Under the pieces are notes generated by a model. That model was not told where the DNA came from and did not search any database. It was given only the letters and a program-made list of their open reading frames with translations. 28,869 nt of DNA from a virus (lineage: Duplodnaviria; Caudoviricetes). Below, one piece after another: positions 18,829 to 25,498 of this stretch (the first letter of the stretch is position 1; every line of letters starts with the position of its first letter). The translations under genes were made by a program, and so were the position numbers. The stretch spans positions 1 to 28,869 of the IMG/VR virus record IMGVR_UViG_3300031938_000024. One strand, given 5' to 3'.

Positions 18829-19426
18829 GTCGAAACGGCGGCGCTTCGGCGTCGCGCTGCTGCTGATCCTCGTGAACTCGTCCGCGATCCTCGGCGTCAT
18901 CGCGCTCGGCGTCGTCGCCTACCAGCAGGGCGAGCGAGCAACTCACGCCGAGGCGACAGCCGCGGCCGAAGCCGAGCAGCGCGACGCCGAGGCGACGGAG
19001 CGGGGCGAAGCGATCGAGGCTCTCCGCGAGCAGGTGCTCGAGCTCGGCGAAGAACCCGTCGTCGACCCCGTGCCTGAGTCGACGAGTCCCACCGTGATCA
19101 ACGGGAAAGACGGCAAGGATGCACCGCCGCCCACCGCCGATCAGCTGCTCGCCGCCGTGCAGCAGTGTTTCGCCGCCGGGCTGTGCACCGCGCCGAAGGG
19201 CGACCCCGGCGCGACAGGCGGCACCGGAGGGCAAGGCCCACCCGGCAACGACTCGACCATCGCAGGCCCGTCCGGCATCGGCATCTCCACCATCACGTGC
19301 ATGGACGACGGCGCCTGGCGCTTCACCATGACCGACGGCACCACTCGCGACACCCCCGGCCCGTGCCGGATCACACCCACCCCCGAACCCACGCCCGATC
19401 CTCCCGAAGGAGCACCCACACCATGA
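18821..19426 (+). CDS. Membrane-anchored protein with short collagen-like repeats
   Basis: GGAGGG RBS before ATG 18821; TM helix, coiled coil, GDPGATGGTGGQGPPGND, two Cys pairs. Confidence 0.75.
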   Translation: MTESKRRRFGVALLLILVNSSAILGVIALGVVAYQQGERATHAEATAAAEAEQRDAEATERGEAIEALREQVLELGEEPVVDPVPESTSPTVINGKDGKDAPPPTADQLLAAVQQCFAAGLCTAPKGDPGATGGTGGQGPPGNDSTIAGPSGIGISTITCMDDGAWRFTMTDGTTRDTPGPCRITPTPEPTPDPPEGAPTP

Positions 19427-19899
19427 GCAAACTCACCAGTCTCGAGTGGTGGAAGGCAGCGCTCGTCCGCGCCGCCTACACCGCCATCGCCATCGCGATC
19501 CCGTACATCGCAGCGGTCAAGTTCGCCGACGTGCCGTGGCTCATGGTCGCGTCGGCCGCATCCGTCGGCGCGATCCTCTCGATCGCCACCTCGCTGTTCG
19601 GCCTCCCCGAATCGGAGGGAACCGACCTGCCGTGGTGGCTCGCCGCCCTCGAGCGCGTCGCAAAGACCTTCGGGCAGTCGCTCGCCGCCGGCCTCACCGG
19701 CGCGACCTTCCTCGCCGACGTCGACTGGACAGTCGTCCTGCAGGCCGCACTCGGAGCGGCGTTCATCTCGCTGCTGCGCCTCATCCTCGCGACGCTGCCG
19801 AACGACCCGAGCCCGAGTATCGCGATGGTCGAGACCGTCGAGGGAAGCTGGGTGCGCGACGACGACGCACCCTCGAGCCGCGCCTCGCAGGTGATCTGA
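19423..19899 (+). CDS. Holin, r1t-like, tandem two-domain
   Basis: AAGGAG RBS with ATGA overlap; WWKAALVRAAYT...DVPW and WWLAALERVAKT...DVDW repeats. Confidence 0.82.
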   Translation: MSKLTSLEWWKAALVRAAYTAIAIAIPYIAAVKFADVPWLMVASAASVGAILSIATSLFGLPESEGTDLPWWLAALERVAKTFGQSLAAGLTGATFLADVDWTVVLQAALGAAFISLLRLILATLPNDPSPSIAMVETVEGSWVRDDDAPSSRASQVI

Positions 19900-20072: not shown

Positions 20073-20381
20073 CTACATGCCGCGCTGGATACTGAGCGGC
20101 GGCGTGCTGTGGTTGGGGAGTGAGCGTCGGTGGACGCCGAGCGCGAGCCACGGCTCAAGCCCGGGGAGCTCGCGCAGCGCCGTGCATAGCACGCGGGTGT
20201 AGTCGTCCTCGAAGAACCCGACCCACGTCCCAACGGACTCGGTGAGCAAGTCGACGCGGTCGCCTGCTGTGGCGCGGAGCTCGTCGATCACCGGCGCGGG
20301 ATCTGTCGTGTACCGATTGCGCGAGCAGATCGCGTCGAGCGTGACGGTCAACATGGCATCGGGTGTGAGCCCTCGGGGCAT
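20073..20381 (-). CDS. Hypothetical protein (102 aa)
   Basis: GAGGAAGGA upstream of ATG 20381; MPRGLTPDAMLTVTLDAICSRNRY... Confidence 0.7.
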   Translation of the reverse strand: MPRGLTPDAMLTVTLDAICSRNRYTTDPAPVIDELRATAGDRVDLLTESVGTWVGFFEDDYTRVLCTALRELPGLEPWLALGVHRRSLPNHSTPPLSIQRGM

Positions 20382-20418
20382 GGCCGGATCATCCTTCCTC
20401 CGGCCGAGACGATCGAGT

Positions 20419-20610
20419 CTAGGCGCTTGGGCCGACATCTGCCTTCGACCGGGTCGGGACGAACGCGCGAACGATGAGCCAGAGAACAACCCCTACGAGG
20501 CCCGCTCCGAGGAGGGCCATGACCGCGGCCGCCGTGCCGCCGGTGATGATCCCGATCGTTACAGCGAAGGCGAGGGCGAGGATCGCGTACACCGCGAGGA
20601 AGATCCGCAT
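20419..20610 (-). CDS. Small two-TM membrane protein (63 aa)
   Basis: MRIFLAVYAILALAFAVTIGIITGG...LLGAGLVGVVLWLIVRAF. Confidence 0.65.
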   Translation of the reverse strand: MRIFLAVYAILALAFAVTIGIITGGTAAAVMALLGAGLVGVVLWLIVRAFVPTRSKADVGPSA

Positions 20611-20667
20611 GCTGACCACGATCCCACACGCGTCGAGCGGCGGCAATCAGGGCCGCGGCTGGTCGTG

Positions 20668-20716
20668 GGGATCAGGGGCGCGTCACGTTCCTGACCGGTG
20701 TCTGATCCTGCGCGGG
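20668..20716. other. att-like recombination site A (serine integrase type), central dinucleotide TT at 20688-20689
   Basis: GGGATCAGG-ggcgc-GTCACG-tt-CCTGAC-cggtg-TCTGATCC-TGCGCGGG; 13/20 arm symmetry; same geometry as the site at 23542. Confidence 0.7.
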
Positions 20717-20875
20717 ATTAGAGCGCATTCACACCGGTGACAGGTGGCGCGCCCTGGCGAGGCGACGGCAGGGATCAAAGGGTCTCTCTGGCAAGCGCGG
20801 CCGGTGAAGCTACTCCCATGCGGGGCGCTCGTCAATCCTGTTGGTAGTTCCTACCCTGCTGGACAAGATCGGCGC

Positions 20876-21364
20876 ATGAACGCTCGTCCATACTGTTCGC
20901 GAGTCCTTTCGGCGATGGCCGGGTTCGCGACACTTGCCGCTCTGCTATCCGGATGCAGTGTGTCTATTCCCTCGGATCCTGAAGGAACGCTGACGGCGGT
21001 GCGAGGGGGAGAACTTCATGTTGGGGTGTCGCCCGATCCTCCTTTGGTCGTCGGCAGCGGCGGGACTCCTACCGGAAGTGTCGTCGATCTGGTGGAGGGT
21101 TTCGCTGCGAGTCTGGATGCAGAGCCAGAGTGGACGGTGGCGACGGAGGAGACGCTTGTCGGGATGCTGGAGGACGGAGATCTCGATCTCATCGCCGGCG
21201 GGATCACCTCGGATACTCCGTGGTTGGAGCGTGCGGGGGTGACTCGCAGCTTCACCGGGGTCGATGGAGCGGACGGTCGTGAGCTCGTGATGTTGGTCCC
21301 TCTCGGAGAGAATGCATTCCTGTCGACGCTCGAGCGATTCCTTGATGAAGAGGCGAACGAATGA
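20876..21364 (+). CDS. Lipoprotein, short solute-binding-protein (family 3)-like fold
   Basis: Lipobox LLSG/C; GELHVGVS, LVEGFAASLDA, LEDGDLDLIAGGIT motifs; overlaps the next gene (ATGA). Confidence 0.75.
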   Translation: MNARPYCSRVLSAMAGFATLAALLSGCSVSIPSDPEGTLTAVRGGELHVGVSPDPPLVVGSGGTPTGSVVDLVEGFAASLDAEPEWTVATEETLVGMLEDGDLDLIAGGITSDTPWLERAGVTRSFTGVDGADGRELVMLVPLGENAFLSTLERFLDEEANE

Positions 21365-22338
21365 AACGCCTCCACGAGTTCGGGCGCGCGGATCTGCCTC
21401 ACGAACAGACAGAAGCACTGCGCAAGGCAATCCGCTGGGAGTGGTTCACCATCGCGTACACGAGCGTGACCATCGCGGTCATCGCCCTCGTCGTCGGCAA
21501 CTCGCAGGCGATGCGCACCGCCTGGATCGAGGACATGCTGTCGCTGATCCCGCAGTTCGCGTTCCTGATCGCGTTGCTGTTCGTGCGCCGGAGGCCGACT
21601 CGTACTCACCCGTACGGCATGCATCGAGCGATGGGTATCGGGCACTTGGTCGCCGGCGTCGCGCTCTTCGTGGTCGGCGCGAATCTCGCGGTCGAGTCGG
21701 CGCTCGGGTTGATCGCCGGTGAGCATCCGACGATCGGAACAGTGCAGATCTGGGGTCAGACGATCTGGCTGGGTTGGTTGATGGTCGGGGTGATGGCCGT
21801 CGTCATCGTCGGCCCCATCTTCTTTTACGGTCCGGCCAAGGCGAAGCTCGCACCCGTCCTGCACAACAAGCTGCTCTACGCGGACGCTGATATGGCGAAA
21901 GCGGATTGGCAGACGACGGTCGCATCCATCGTCGGCGTTCTCGGGGTCGGCGTCGGCGTGTGGTGGCTCGACGGGGCCGCGGCGATCTTCATCTCCCTCG
22001 GGATCATCTGGGATGGCGTGCGGAACACGAAGGCCGCGGTGGTCGATTTGATGGACGAGCGCGCCCGCACCTACGACAGCAAGAAACCTCACCCGCTCGC
22101 CGGTGACATCGTCGCTCACCTTCGTGCGCAGCCGTGGGTGACAGATGCTGCTGTCCGCCTCCGTGACCAAGGGCAGGTGTTTCATGTCGAAGCATTCGTC
22201 GTTCCCCGCCGCGGAAAAGTCGCGGCCCGTGACATCACCGCGGCGGCGGAAGCGATCGCCGCCCTGGACTGGAAGATGCAGGATGTCGTCATCGTGCCCG
22301 CCGAACAGCTGCCGGATGAGGCAGATCCCGGGCGCTGA
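21361..22338 (+). CDS. Cation diffusion facilitator (cation efflux) family transporter
   Basis: About six TM helices; S.AM...WIED, PT..HPYG..R, LYADA..AKADW, WWLDG.AA, C-terminal RLRDQGQVFHVE. Confidence 0.85.
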   Translation: MKRLHEFGRADLPHEQTEALRKAIRWEWFTIAYTSVTIAVIALVVGNSQAMRTAWIEDMLSLIPQFAFLIALLFVRRRPTRTHPYGMHRAMGIGHLVAGVALFVVGANLAVESALGLIAGEHPTIGTVQIWGQTIWLGWLMVGVMAVVIVGPIFFYGPAKAKLAPVLHNKLLYADADMAKADWQTTVASIVGVLGVGVGVWWLDGAAAIFISLGIIWDGVRNTKAAVVDLMDERARTYDSKKPHPLAGDIVAHLRAQPWVTDAAVRLRDQGQVFHVEAFVVPRRGKVAARDITAAAEAIAALDWKMQDVVIVPAEQLPDEADPGR

Positions 22339-22391
22339 TGTCCGACACGCGCTGCACGTGCTAGCTCGACGATCGCTGATTTTCAAGGGTC

Positions 22392-22420
22392 TAGACCAAT
22401 ATTCCGGGCGCTCTTAACTT
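22392..22420 (+). promoter_or_regulatory. Putative sigma-A-type promoter
   Basis: TAGACC-N17-TAACTT, about 110 bp upstream of ATG 22532. Confidence 0.45.
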
Positions 22421-22430
22421 GGTCGCAGAT

Positions 22431-22524
22431 CTGGTGGACGACGAGTAGCCCGTTCCCCGAGGTGCGATCCCCGCGCCCTCACCGGCCACTCTCGCCGCCA
22501 GCAAATGGTCCTTTGAGAGTGGAG
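22431..22524 (+). ncRNA. Candidate structured 5' leader with alternative RBS-sequestering fold
   Basis: 22431-22446 pairs with 22488-22501; alternatively CCACTCTC 22486-22493 pairs with GAGAGTGG 22515-22522, overlapping the RBS. Confidence 0.4.
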
Positions 22525-22531
22525 TACCGCA

Positions 22532-22813
22532 ATGTCTGACCCCAGGTTCGAGCTTCGGAAGATCACCGACACTGAATGGCTGATCCTCGACCACAAATAC
22601 GCTGCGCACGACGCCCGCCAGACGGTGGCCTGCATCTACCAGGTCGACACCGTCGAGGTCGACGTCATCTGGCTGCGCGACCTCCCGCTGGCGAACTGCT
22701 ACATGTCCGCTGGCGACGTCCTCAGCGACCTCCAGCGCTTCCACGCGACGCCCGACCGAACCACCGCCCCGATCACCATCCCCCACCTGCCCCCGTTGGC
22801 GCCGACCGCCTGA
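22532..22813 (+). CDS. Hypothetical protein (93 aa)
   Basis: GGAG RBS; MSDPRFELRKITDTEWLILD...VACIY...VIWL; GC3-rich codons. Confidence 0.75.
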   Translation: MSDPRFELRKITDTEWLILDHKYAAHDARQTVACIYQVDTVEVDVIWLRDLPLANCYMSAGDVLSDLQRFHATPDRTTAPITIPHLPPLAPTA

Positions 22814-22822
22814 GGTTTAGTC

Positions 22823-23152
22823 ATGGGCACATTCCTGTACGACGGCGGCATCAAAACGGAGATCGAAGATCGGGCGCTTGCCCACATCCAACTCGTGATC
22901 TCAGCGAAGCTCCGACGCGGAGAGCCATTCGCGTTCACCTGGCGTGAGGACATGAGCGTCGGTGGCGGGCGAACCAGCGTGTGGGTTCACCCCGGGAGCG
23001 CGCTCGTCTTTAAGTTCCACGGAAGCCGGCAACCGTCGATCAACCGACGATGGGTTGACGCTCTGGCATACGCAGCGAATTCCCCGGGCGGTCTATACCT
23101 CATGTCGGAAGAGACCGCAGAAGCATCGGCGGAGCACCAAACCCACGCCTGA
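22823..23152 (+). CDS. Microbacteriaceae small protein (DUF7882-like, recalled), copy 1
   Basis: GAGG RBS; IEDRALAH...KLRRGEPF...W...GRTSVWVHP...ANSPGGL. Confidence 0.8.
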   Translation: MGTFLYDGGIKTEIEDRALAHIQLVISAKLRRGEPFAFTWREDMSVGGGRTSVWVHPGSALVFKFHGSRQPSINRRWVDALAYAANSPGGLYLMSEETAEASAEHQTHA

Positions 23153-23161
23153 TCGGGGCGC

Positions 23162-23488
23162 CTAGGCGTCGGCGTCAGGCTCAGGGGTTTCGAGAACCTC
23201 ATCAACGAGCATGATGCCGCCAGTCGAGTTCGCGGAATGCATCAGTTCCTCGATCCACTTCACATTCAACTGCGGCGCCTCGGGTTCGTCGAACGTGAAG
23301 CGGAGCGGGATCGAAGGGTGAATCCAGATCGTCGAACGCCCTGCCGGGTCACCCTCCGGGTGCTTCCACGACAGCGTGAAACTCTCGTTTCTGCGGAGCT
23401 TTGTCGCAATGACCACCTTGAGGTGTGCGAGTGCCCGGTCCTCGATATGCACGGGATCGTTTGCCGCGCCGTAGTGAAGAGTTGCCAT
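23162..23488 (-). CDS. Microbacteriaceae small protein (DUF7882-like, recalled), copy 2
   Basis: IEDRALAH...KLRRNESF...W...GRSTIWIHP...ANSTGGI; TATGGT 6 nt before the ATG suggests leaderless mRNA. Confidence 0.8.
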   Translation of the reverse strand: MATLHYGAANDPVHIEDRALAHLKVVIATKLRRNESFTLSWKHPEGDPAGRSTIWIHPSIPLRFTFDEPEAPQLNVKWIEELMHSANSTGGIMLVDEVLETPEPDADA

Positions 23489-23533
23489 GCTCTCACCATA
23501 CTTAGTCCGCGCGACGGCGCTACGACGCCGCCG

Positions 23534-23591
23534 CCCGCGCAGGGATCAGAACCCATTCACGCTCGTGACTATGTCCTGATCCCACCGCGGG
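23534..23591. other. att-like recombination site B next to the integrase 3' end, central dinucleotide CT at 23562-23563
   Basis: CCCGCG-ca-GGGATCAGA-accca-TTCACG-ct-CGTGAC-tatgt-CCTGATCCC-ac-CGCGGG; 22/28 arm symmetry; 3 bp from the int stop codon. Confidence 0.8.
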
Positions 23592-23594
23592 AAA

Positions 23595-25040
23595 TCAGGA
23601 CTCGTGCGGGACGATTTCGATCCGGGCGTGCGGTCGACCCGGGGTGACCTCGACTCGCGCGATGAGCGAGCGTAGGTACTCTCGGCGCTCCTCGACAGTG
23701 AGGTCACTCCAACGCTCGAGAAGGACGGGCAGCACGCGAAGCGGTGCGGACTGCTGGACTTCGGTCGTCCGGAGCTCCTGCTCGAGCGCAGTTGCCTGCG
23801 TCGCGTATCGGTCGCGCAGCGTCTCATAAGCCGCTTGCGGCATGCCCATGCTGAGGCGCTGCTCGACGAGCATCACCTGCCGGTTGGCAAGGTCCGCGAG
23901 CTGCCGCTTTAGATCGGCGGTGGGGTCTGCCGTAACTCGACGGGGGCGTCGCTCGATGCCTGCGCGCACCTCGGAGCGGACCCGTGACTCGTGCTCGTGC
24001 AGCCAGGCGCGCACGGCGTCGTCGATGAGCGACTGTGCGACGTAGCCGCCGTCATGGGTGCCCTTCTCCTTGCCGTCTTTGCACCGGTACGATTGCTCTC
24101 GGTCCTGGCCGTGGGTGCCACCGTGCATCTTCGATCCGCACGCGCACCAGACCATGCCCGAGTAAGCGTAGGTCGAGCGTTCAGATCGCCGGTAGACGCG
24201 TCGGCGGCCGCGAGCCTCGAGGTACGCGCTCCACTCGTCGTCGGTGATGAGCGCCTCGTGGATGCCGCGCTTCTGTTCGCCTTGATAGGTGATCAACCCG
24301 GCGGCGAACCCCGAGTCGAGCACACGACGAAGGGTGCGTTCGGACCACAAGCCGTCGCCTTTACCGCCGTAGCCAGCGACAGGGCGCGTGGGGCCAGTGT
24401 TCAACCAACGCACGAGAGCGTAAACGCTCTCGCCCGAGATGTAGCGGCGGTAGGTCTCGGCGAGCACTGCGCCGGTGATCGGGTCTGGGGTGAAGCCATC
24501 GGCGGGCGAGTATGCGTATCCGAATCGCGGCTTGCCGTTGATCGGCTTTCCCTCGCGGAATCGTCGAGAGTGGGCTTCGCGCCAAGTGTCCCCGATGAGG
24601 TCCGCCTGATATGCGTTGAACTCGCCGACCATGCCGCGGGCGAGGCGTCCGTGTGAGGTGCGATCGTCGATCGGTTCGGTTGCGGAGAGGAGCCCACCGC
24701 CGAGCGCGTCGACTCGGTCAAGGGCGACCGCCCACCGCAGGCGGTGGCGCGCGGTGCGGGAGAACTTCCAGACGACGATGACCTCGAACTCGCCGGCCTC
24801 GAGCCGCTCGATCGACTGATCGAGTCGCGGCCACCACGCCGAGCGAGCCCGCGAGCCTGTCTCGTCGATGCCCTCGACCCAGTCGACGATGTCGATACCG
24901 TTCGAGGCTGCGTACGATTCGATCGCGTGCCGCTGTACCTCCGGGGAGGTCATGCCGTCACGCTCGCGCGAGACGCGGATCATTCCGAGGCCGCGCCGAC
25001 GCGATGGAGCGGCGGCAAGGTGGCGGCGCGCGCTCGGCAC
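23595..25040 (-). CDS. int: Large serine recombinase (integrase), 481 aa
   Basis: Catalytic IRVS, S..VQ, SRTAR, RFGY recombinase domain, CACG...YRC zinc ribbon, coiled coil; GTG start overlaps the upstream TAG. Confidence 0.95.
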   Translation of the reverse strand: MPSARRHLAAAPSRRRGLGMIRVSRERDGMTSPEVQRHAIESYAASNGIDIVDWVEGIDETGSRARSAWWPRLDQSIERLEAGEFEVIVVWKFSRTARHRLRWAVALDRVDALGGGLLSATEPIDDRTSHGRLARGMVGEFNAYQADLIGDTWREAHSRRFREGKPINGKPRFGYAYSPADGFTPDPITGAVLAETYRRYISGESVYALVRWLNTGPTRPVAGYGGKGDGLWSERTLRRVLDSGFAAGLITYQGEQKRGIHEALITDDEWSAYLEARGRRRVYRRSERSTYAYSGMVWCACGSKMHGGTHGQDREQSYRCKDGKEKGTHDGGYVAQSLIDDAVRAWLHEHESRVRSEVRAGIERRPRRVTADPTADLKRQLADLANRQVMLVEQRLSMGMPQAAYETLRDRYATQATALEQELRTTEVQQSAPLRVLPVLLERWSDLTVEERREYLRSLIARVEVTPGRPHARIEIVPHES

Positions 25041-25498
25041 TATGCCACCCCGATGCGGTGCGCCCACTGTCCGGCGCCCATCTTCGGCGCGACGTAGACA
25101 TCCTCGCCGATACGGATGAGCACTCGGCGGAACGCTTCGACGAGGTCCGTCGTGACGTGCAATGCGATAGCCATCGCCTCGAGGTGACCCTCGTGTCGAG
25201 CTTCTTCGACGCGATAGTCGTGAGGATCGATCAGACGCATTGCCGCCCACTCGTCAGCACGCCGCTCCTGCTTCGCGTTGATCGGTCCGAACATCGATGG
25301 CGTGTCTCCGAAGGCCGCATGACATGCCTCGTGCGCGAGCGTACTCACGTAGCGCCGGAATCGCAGGTCGTGCTGGATGCGGATCAGCCGCTCGTCGTGC
25401 AGATATTCGCCATCGCGATCATCTGGCAGGTCACAGAACTCGACCCGCACTCCGATCGAATCGAGCCCGTCGTATAGCTCGAGAATTTTCGAGTCCAT
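25040..25498 (-). CDS. ImmA/IrrE-family metallopeptidase (anti-repressor protease)
   Basis: TLAHEACHA (HExxH) and ERRADEWAAMRLI motifs; between repressor and integrase. Confidence 0.9.
   Translation of the reverse strand: MDSKILELYDGLDSIGVRVEFCDLPDDRDGEYLHDERLIRIQHDLRFRRYVSTLAHEACHAAFGDTPSMFGPINAKQERRADEWAAMRLIDPHDYRVEEARHEGHLEAMAIALHVTTDLVEAFRRVLIRIGEDVYVAPKMGAGQWAHRIGVA

Follow-up and report, generated by a model that had tools for sequence, protein, structure and literature searches.

The window analysed here is the IMG/VR virus record IMGVR_UViG_3300031938_000024 over its full length (28,869 nucleotides; Duplodnaviria, Caudoviricetes), a 28.9-kb linear record without terminal repeats which represents a temperate Microbacterium phage in its unintegrated form. 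Beside the gene for its large serine integrase, the phage holds a 2.8-kb cassette of cargo genes between two attachment (att) sites, named below site 3 and site 2, and we consider it probable that the integrase picks up and drops such cassettes through the choice of the attR site. Four states were observed by sequence: the empty prophage, the prophage with cassettes in front of attR, the lone cassette within the target gene, likely a pilin gene, and the unintegrated phage with a cassette; the transitions between these states we infer. A preliminary description of the region had proposed a cassette that is bounded by the sites of the integrase and can be swapped. The feature is real, the boundaries and the roles of the sites are corrected below, and the cassette idea is supported by the sequences of empty, loaded and orphan alleles.

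Sites bounding the cassette

We found the two inverted repeats of the preliminary description at the places given there, with their centres 2874 bp apart and their arms (A and B, C and D) as written, in the form of 40-bp sites. The search pattern proposed with them gave two exact matches in the window and none further with up to three mismatches, where 100 shuffled sequences gave an expectation of 0; the full pattern had 0 matches in viral contigs. Site 1 (positions 20669 to 20708) is an accessory attP-like palindrome outside the cassette, made of the phage-type arms A and B around a TT core (20688-20689). Site 2 (23543 to 23582), made of arm C, a CT core (23562-23563) and arm D, is the phage attP, with arm C also being the right end of the cassette. 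Phage DNA and phage-type arms lie on both sides of site 2, therefore the window is not integrated there. Homology to the window stopped at the core of site 2 in five related prophage records (L001, L002, L011, L012 and L013); in L001, L011, L012 and L013, arm D, the core and then host pilin-gene sequence come after the integrase gene, and the L002 record terminates at the core.

The left boundary of the cassette is a third site, unnoticed earlier. Site 3 (20715 to 20757, plus strand) is of attR type and starts 6 bp to the right of site 1, with a phage-type arm (20715-20733), a CC core (20734-20735) and an arm of another type, called here the X arm (20736-20757). Its left arm was identical at 16 of 19 positions to the attR phage arm of the empty prophage in genome G001, and its right arm at 13-19 of 22 positions to the nine other X arms. 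The cassette thus extends from the X arm to arm C (20736 to 23561; 2828 bp core to core), with a GC content of 0.63 compared with 0.67 for the phage.

The preliminary description had read sites 1 and 2 as a hybrid attL/attR pair left by one insertion, whose deletion would give a symmetric A-D site on the phage and a C-B circle. Both sites have equal geometry, A and D share both motifs and B and C share an outer stretch. The cores differ, however (TT versus CT), and all four arms are of the phage type. Ungapped comparison of the inner 30 bases gave C-D as the most similar pair (22 identical), followed by A-D (17), A-C (16), B-C (16), B-D (15) and A-B (14), so that the pairing of arms lends no preference to hybrid sites. 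Site 1 stands unchanged beside attR in the empty G001 and in the loaded G003 and G449, and neither the A-D junction nor the C-B circle was found in viral contigs, in 401 Microbacterium genomes or in sequencing run X1. The cargo boundary, formerly placed at 20688, falls at 20734 in site 3, which is in part the outcome that the description itself had named as speaking against it. Origin of sites 1 and 2 from a single insertion, largely refuted by G001, is therefore very improbable, while the idea of a swappable cassette gains from the empty allele in G001 and from eight other cassettes with unrelated cargo.

G001 keeps the palindrome without any cargo, so site 1 does not bound the cargo. Its arms aligned with phage-type arms at register 0 (identity 0.69-0.75), and a TT-core palindrome occupied the same position in G001, G003 and G449, 6-7 bp before the first attR-type arm. 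Second palindromes resembling site 1 were also found near att in L005, G005 and L120. Pairing with CT sites is impossible for a TT core, which makes it likely that site 1 serves for binding only or as a spare. Among native attB sites the core is TT in G253 and CT in G140 and G231, and a TT core also occurs in some attL sites (L001, L002, L129 and G411), so that a role of site 1 as a spare attP is possible; among the prophages, none was seen to use the accessory palindrome. The attP was readable directly after the integrase gene in L127 (11392-11438) and L120 (11441-11560), the latter with a second TT-core palindrome about 70 bp further on. In G003 (L052:10926-11186) and G449 (L173:8330-8623) the accessory palindrome adjoins or overlaps a DUF3263 gene, whose product is a candidate directionality factor or regulator; the window had no DUF3263 match at the equivalent spot. 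Other small genes beside the palindrome are candidates for the directionality factor as well.

We then considered whether host DNA had been joined into the phage contig by assembly. The cargo consists of ordinary Microbacterium chromosomal genes (372 of the 401 genomes matched some part of it, at best with 79% identity over three genes) and no single contig of run X1 crossed the whole cargo. However, separately assembled X1 contigs bridged both cargo junctions with zero differing letters and at a flat depth of 6.6-7.1, the CC core of site 3 was reproduced, and isolate genomes show the same arrangement of sites, which makes a chimera scarcely credible. Run X1 is possibly the source sample and so not biologically independent. 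Runs X2-X4 gave only short related pieces.

Insertion target and cassette states in relatives

Phages with integrases 91-94% identical to that of the window insert at one dinucleotide of a gene of 65 codons, located between a T2SSF/TadC gene and TadE-like genes. The gene itself had no Pfam match; by its position and sequence, it is likely a Flp pilin gene. In four close relatives (L001, L011, L012 and L013) attL links arm D with the 5' arm of the pilin gene; at the attR ends that could be read in prophages, a phage-type arm is connected through the core to the pilin 3' part. An attR end was readable in three of six close relatives (G001, G002 and G003), whose junctions with the pilin gene at attL and attR have their phage/host breakpoints at the central dinucleotide. 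For L001, L002 and L003 the attR end was unreadable, the record being too short or without a match. The integrase gene abuts attR in L005 and L016.

The region between the palindrome and attR differs among these relatives. G001 is the empty allele, with the palindrome, 7 bp, a phage-type arm, the CT core and the 3' part of the pilin gene. In G003 (Microbacterium sp. Leaf320) the palindrome is followed by two cassettes of 1061 and 798 bp and then by attR, with a CAP12/Pycsar-type TIR gene (E 4e-19) and a weak HEPN match, below its cut-off, as cargo. G002 has two cassettes of 1064 and 1956 bp before attR, carrying an NDT-like gene (a weak match) and an AIPR/AbiU gene. G449 is a decayed element with the palindrome, two cassettes and attR, which carry a VanY-domain gene and an arsR with an arsC-like gene. 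Lone cassettes were found inside the pilin gene of G233 (1075 bp, DUF1254/1214) and G254 (1568 bp, ATPase), both with the layout pilin 5' arm, CT core, X arm, one gene, and a phage-type arm joined to the pilin 3' part; neither genome had a match to the window integrase. This lone state had been predicted ahead of the search that recovered the two genomes.

The search for a phage-type arm joined to the pilin 3' part gave matches in 7 of the 401 genomes (two already known, three new and two by chance), and that for the X-arm pattern in 7 of 381 (three known, G449 and G253 as new, and two by chance), with 0 matches for the reversed-pattern controls. After inspection, G315 and G292 from the former and G333 and G027 from the latter were dropped as chance matches. 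The pattern of phage arm plus core gave one match in the 401 genomes. These searches were based on patterns, which may have overlooked diverged inner sites in G004, G005, G140, G253 and G254.

Several related sequences were met along with these alleles. In G002 (L137:13182-14090) and G003 (L052:9889-10830), homologous TIR genes terminate shortly ahead of a phage-type arm, and a left site is missing from the G002 copy, as though the X end of a cassette had been lost. In G253 a site made of phage arm, CT core and X arm (L176:9318-9360) comes directly after a GmrSD-HEPN pair, in an island that also holds HsdR-like, McrBC and methylase genes; a window-type integrase was not found in this genome. 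In G140 a phage-type arm with a CT core and about 18 bases resembling the pilin 3' arm (L162:18630-18680) lies after acyltransferase-like genes and is followed by unrelated DNA, while the genome has its own intact pilin gene at another place; this sequence may illustrate the way in which arms of this kind move. A second, unrelated insertion system has struck the same pilin gene a few codons further upstream in G411, G254 and G231. It is represented by large islands in G411 (L197:2530-2560) and G254 (L158, upstream of 17325; here Pycsar-like genes are included) and, in G231 (L187:1210-1520), by an insert of 294 bp in which the gene start is duplicated.

The X arm as left end of the cassettes

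Seventeen sites aligned without gaps in one register, with a CT core in 16 of them. The ten X arms were 66% identical at positions +7 to +22 and 30% identical at +23 to +35, and none of 5000 shuffles reached 66%. The identity was 68% for the seven X arms recovered without the X pattern and 55% for one G449 arm that the pattern had missed. At register 0 the X arm scored 0.33 against phage-type arms, compared with 0.72, and so is not of the phage type; its identity was 28% both with the pilin 3' arm and with arm D. For phage large serine integrases, the outer motif would be expected to shift by 4-5 bp between attP and attB arms; the host arm compared with arm D peaked at registers +6 (0.62) and +1 (0.46). 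The nine cargoes had no blastn or tblastx match among them, and the layout was always X arm, cargo and phage-type arm.

These data bear on the main rival explanation, passive accretion, in which the cassettes are decayed elements of an integrase family that was not seen, the X arm is the attL-side arm of that family, and phages integrate beside such remains and occasionally carry them off. Accretion is a known route to tandem islands (PMC5704250, PMC3146451), G449 is plainly decayed, sequence similar to the 3' end of an integrase gene comes before the arm that leads into one cassette site of G003, the right arms of the cassettes differ from each other as the arms of different phages would, and the X site of G253 lies off the pilin locus. 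On the other hand, no attL site read in the phage family has an X arm (those of two prophages of opposite orientation have phage-type arms), and the nine cargoes showed no remains of an integrase. Moreover, the two ends of a cassette differ in type, unlike the two arms of one attP, and conservation of the X arm persists next to unrelated cargo and ends abruptly at +22. Taken together, we regard passive accretion as unlikely.

Proposed route of cassette gain and loss

In the reading that we prefer, cassettes move by the choice among attR sites. With the core written as a slash, the pilin attB is B/b and attP is P/D. In a lone cassette, B/X-cargo-Pc/b (G233 and G254), the host arm with the X arm would act as a rebuilt attB. 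A phage that integrates at B/X by attP x attB would give B/D-phage-P/X-cargo-Pc/b, the arrangement of G003 and G002. Excision by attL x the inner attR would leave the cassette in the chromosome, and excision by attL x the outer attR would yield a phage with P/X-cargo-Pc/D, the layout of the window, and restore the pilin gene B/b; the right arm of the cassette would then be the new attP arm. Repeated rounds could build cassette arrays. Both reactions are known for serine integrases (PMC11722253, PMC3836970), and the observed states fit canonical chemistry because each step is either attP x attB or attL x attR. Co-excision of a cassette with the phage we infer from the layout of the window. The CC core of site 3 would block a new deposit, therefore the copy of the cassette in the window is probably fixed in the phage. 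A stronger version, in which a family of temperate actinobacterial phages maintains the shuttle, a dedicated X arm rebuilds the site, the phage deposits cassettes for defence and stress in the host pilin gene and collects them there by the choice made at excision, and a TT-core spare attP gives the phage entry to hosts with TT at the pilin codon, appears to us a serious candidate, slightly short of an even prospect.

We also considered that neighbouring attR-type sites recombine with each other and release a cassette circle, which is re-inserted at attP or attR as integron cassettes are. Arrays of 0.8-2.8-kb direct-repeat units with a common core would suit such a route, and CcrAB excises tandem SCC (staphylococcal cassette chromosome) cassettes singly and in combinations (PMC11470126). 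For phage serine integrases, however, attL and attR differ only by an asymmetric core and the complementarity of the cores decides the outcome (PMC11722253, PMC3836970), so directly repeated CT-core attR sites would be expected to give no products. No circle junction was found in run X1, and the canonical route already accounts for every state seen. Free circles are thus quite improbable. An exchange of cassettes between two sites, in the manner of recombinase-mediated cassette exchange, had been suggested earlier, and no sign of it was found.

A number of observations weigh against movement of cassettes by attR choice. No recombination event was observed, and the same cassette was not found in two different states. 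Run X1 showed one arrangement only, and the empty, attL and attR joints were not found in it, with contigs dropping rare variants and about half of the run read. Viral contigs gave 0 X sites and metagenome contigs none beyond that of the window itself. Inner sites were not found in the distant prophages of G004 and G005 with patterns tuned to the close subfamily, which diverged sites may escape. The X site of G253 sits outside the pilin locus, and the pilin gene of that genome is intact. Against host-type arms, the X arm aligned best at shifts of -1 and -5 (0.47), with 0.41 at 0, which gives no clean placement. Moreover, the core of site 3 is mismatched (CC), no directionality factor was identified, and the proposed route does not account for the initial entry of new cargo between two arms. 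The four metagenome matches to the X pattern were L095, which is the window's own contig, and three chance matches in unrelated genes.

Cargo and neighbouring phage genes

The five cargo genes of the preliminary description were all present. They code for a likely lipoprotein with an SBP_bac_3 domain (20876 to 21364, plus strand; PF00497, E 2e-7) with a lipobox-like motif in its translation, a cation diffusion facilitator transporter (21361 to 22338, plus strand; PF01545, E 8e-18, and TIGR01297, E 3e-18, below the cut-off of that model), a protein of 93 aa (22532 to 22813, plus strand) without a Pfam or NCBIfam match, a DUF7882 protein (22823 to 23152, plus strand; PF25355, E 9e-36) and its convergent DUF7882 paralogue (23162 to 23488, minus strand; PF25355, E 2e-39). 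Homologues of the 93-aa protein gene occur in Microbacterium chromosomes, with 70-81% DNA matches in G342, G231 and G149. Homology to the chromosomal copies of the cargo begins about 50 bp past the X arm and fades ahead of arm C, and in three of three orthologous copies the X arm was absent, as was the phage-type arm (three of three). The possibility that the cargo is host DNA that lay beside a secondary attB is weakened by these orthologous loci without either arm. DUF7882 genes were also seen outside cassettes, between the lysis genes and the att sites, in G002 (L137:11183-11530) and G449 (L173:7189-7527).

In the window, genes for terminase, portal, capsid, tape measure and holin precede the region of the sites, and beyond it come those for the large serine integrase and an ImmA-like peptidase, with the early genes after them. 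The holin gene (19423 to 19899, plus strand; PF16945, E 3e-15) is the end of the lysis module and marks the phage side to the left of the sites. The integrase (23595 to 25043, minus strand; 482 aa with the start codon assumed) has Resolvase, Recombinase and Zn_ribbon_recom domains, and its gene ends 12 bp from arm D. Its nearest annotated relative is the integrase of Arthrobacter phage Maja (47%). Integrases 91-94% identical to it reside in Microbacterium prophages, so the host of the window phage is likely a Microbacterium. The ImmA/IrrE-like metallopeptidase gene (25040 to 25498, minus strand; PF06114, E 2e-7) belongs to the lysogeny module. Between the lysis terminator and site 1 (20073-20619) lie two small reverse-strand genes without a family, a stretch 82% conserved in G449; one of them matches gene 29 of Microbacterium phage Footloose. 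The INPHARED set gave no close phage match to the region, only single-gene matches, and plasmids gave two gene matches. A consensus scan for a promoter-like site found none.

Comparison with known systems

The system works like the accretion of cis-mobilizable elements (CIMEs) and like the tandem cassettes of SCCmec but is phage-borne, and it is not an integron. As reviewed by Guedon et al. 2017 (PMC5704250), CIMEs are integrase-less, att-bounded cargo units stacked at one target, which are carried along when a neighbouring element excises at an outer site. The nine cassettes likewise hold no integrase or transfer genes and keep att sites at both ends. The integrative conjugative and integrative mobilizable elements described there sit at gene ends, and the incoming element uses the attR that holds the gene end, whereas in the present case a temperate phage acts as carrier, insertion takes place within a gene, and a conserved non-host arm apparently rebuilds attB on the attL side. 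The left ends of the cassettes are X arms, unlike every attL arm read, and a parent element was not found.

SCCmec and the tandem SCC-like cassettes for defence (CcrAB/CcrC; Hossain et al. 2024, PMC11470126) likewise combine a large serine recombinase with att sites in tandem at a single locus and with defence-rich cassettes that lack a recombinase of their own. The SCC cassettes tested measured 17-26 kb; they leave as circles, in every combination, and do not belong to prophages, whereas the units here are 0.8-2.8 kb with asymmetric ends and a phage integrase. The window integrase scored 18 against the CcrB model (cut-off 900), no CcrA/B/C with rlmH insertion was seen, and the target is in the tad locus. 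The ssrA islands of Dehalococcoides (DsiB; McMurdie et al. 2011) are also tandem serine-recombinase islands, some of them without an integration module, but have 20-bp direct repeats of the ssrA end, an intact target gene and no phage carrier (PMC3146451). With the large serine integrases of the phages SPbeta, phiBT1 and phiC31 the window integrase shares the domain layout, the 40-bp sites with a central dinucleotide and an attP next to the 3' end of the integrase gene, and it has the resolvase, recombinase and zinc-ribbon domains of this class in one protein; it differs by several attR-type sites per prophage and by an accessory palindrome with another core.

Integrons have the tyrosine recombinase IntI beside attI, co-oriented cassettes expressed from one upstream promoter, and attC sites that act as single-stranded hairpins. 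Arrays of small unrelated cassettes, many for defence, are common to both systems. The integron-like chemistry suggested earlier does not apply, as the adjacent enzyme is a serine recombinase, not an IntI tyrosine recombinase, and the att sites are double-stranded; moreover, the cargo genes face both ways and the cassette junctions consist of two dissimilar arms. The phage carrier, the target within a gene, the small units and the asymmetric ends distinguish the system from CIMEs, SCC cassettes and the ssrA islands. In the literature, with subscription journals poorly covered, we found no report of the system, nor of a prophage with several attR sites used in this way.

If the maintained shuttle were true, a precise and repeatable specialised transduction would follow from canonical serine-integrase reactions alone. 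The integrase of the window is a new one for which the natural attP and attB are at hand along with variant sites, among them sites whose natural cores are TT and CT. If movement by attR choice is right, 'aberrant excision' would become a site-specific, reversible process. This reading would also explain the integrase-less islands in a pilus gene, which, as a speculation, may itself provide a phage receptor, and would show concretely how genes against phages and stress can be acquired and lost by prophages at the hotspot between the lysis genes and the integrase.

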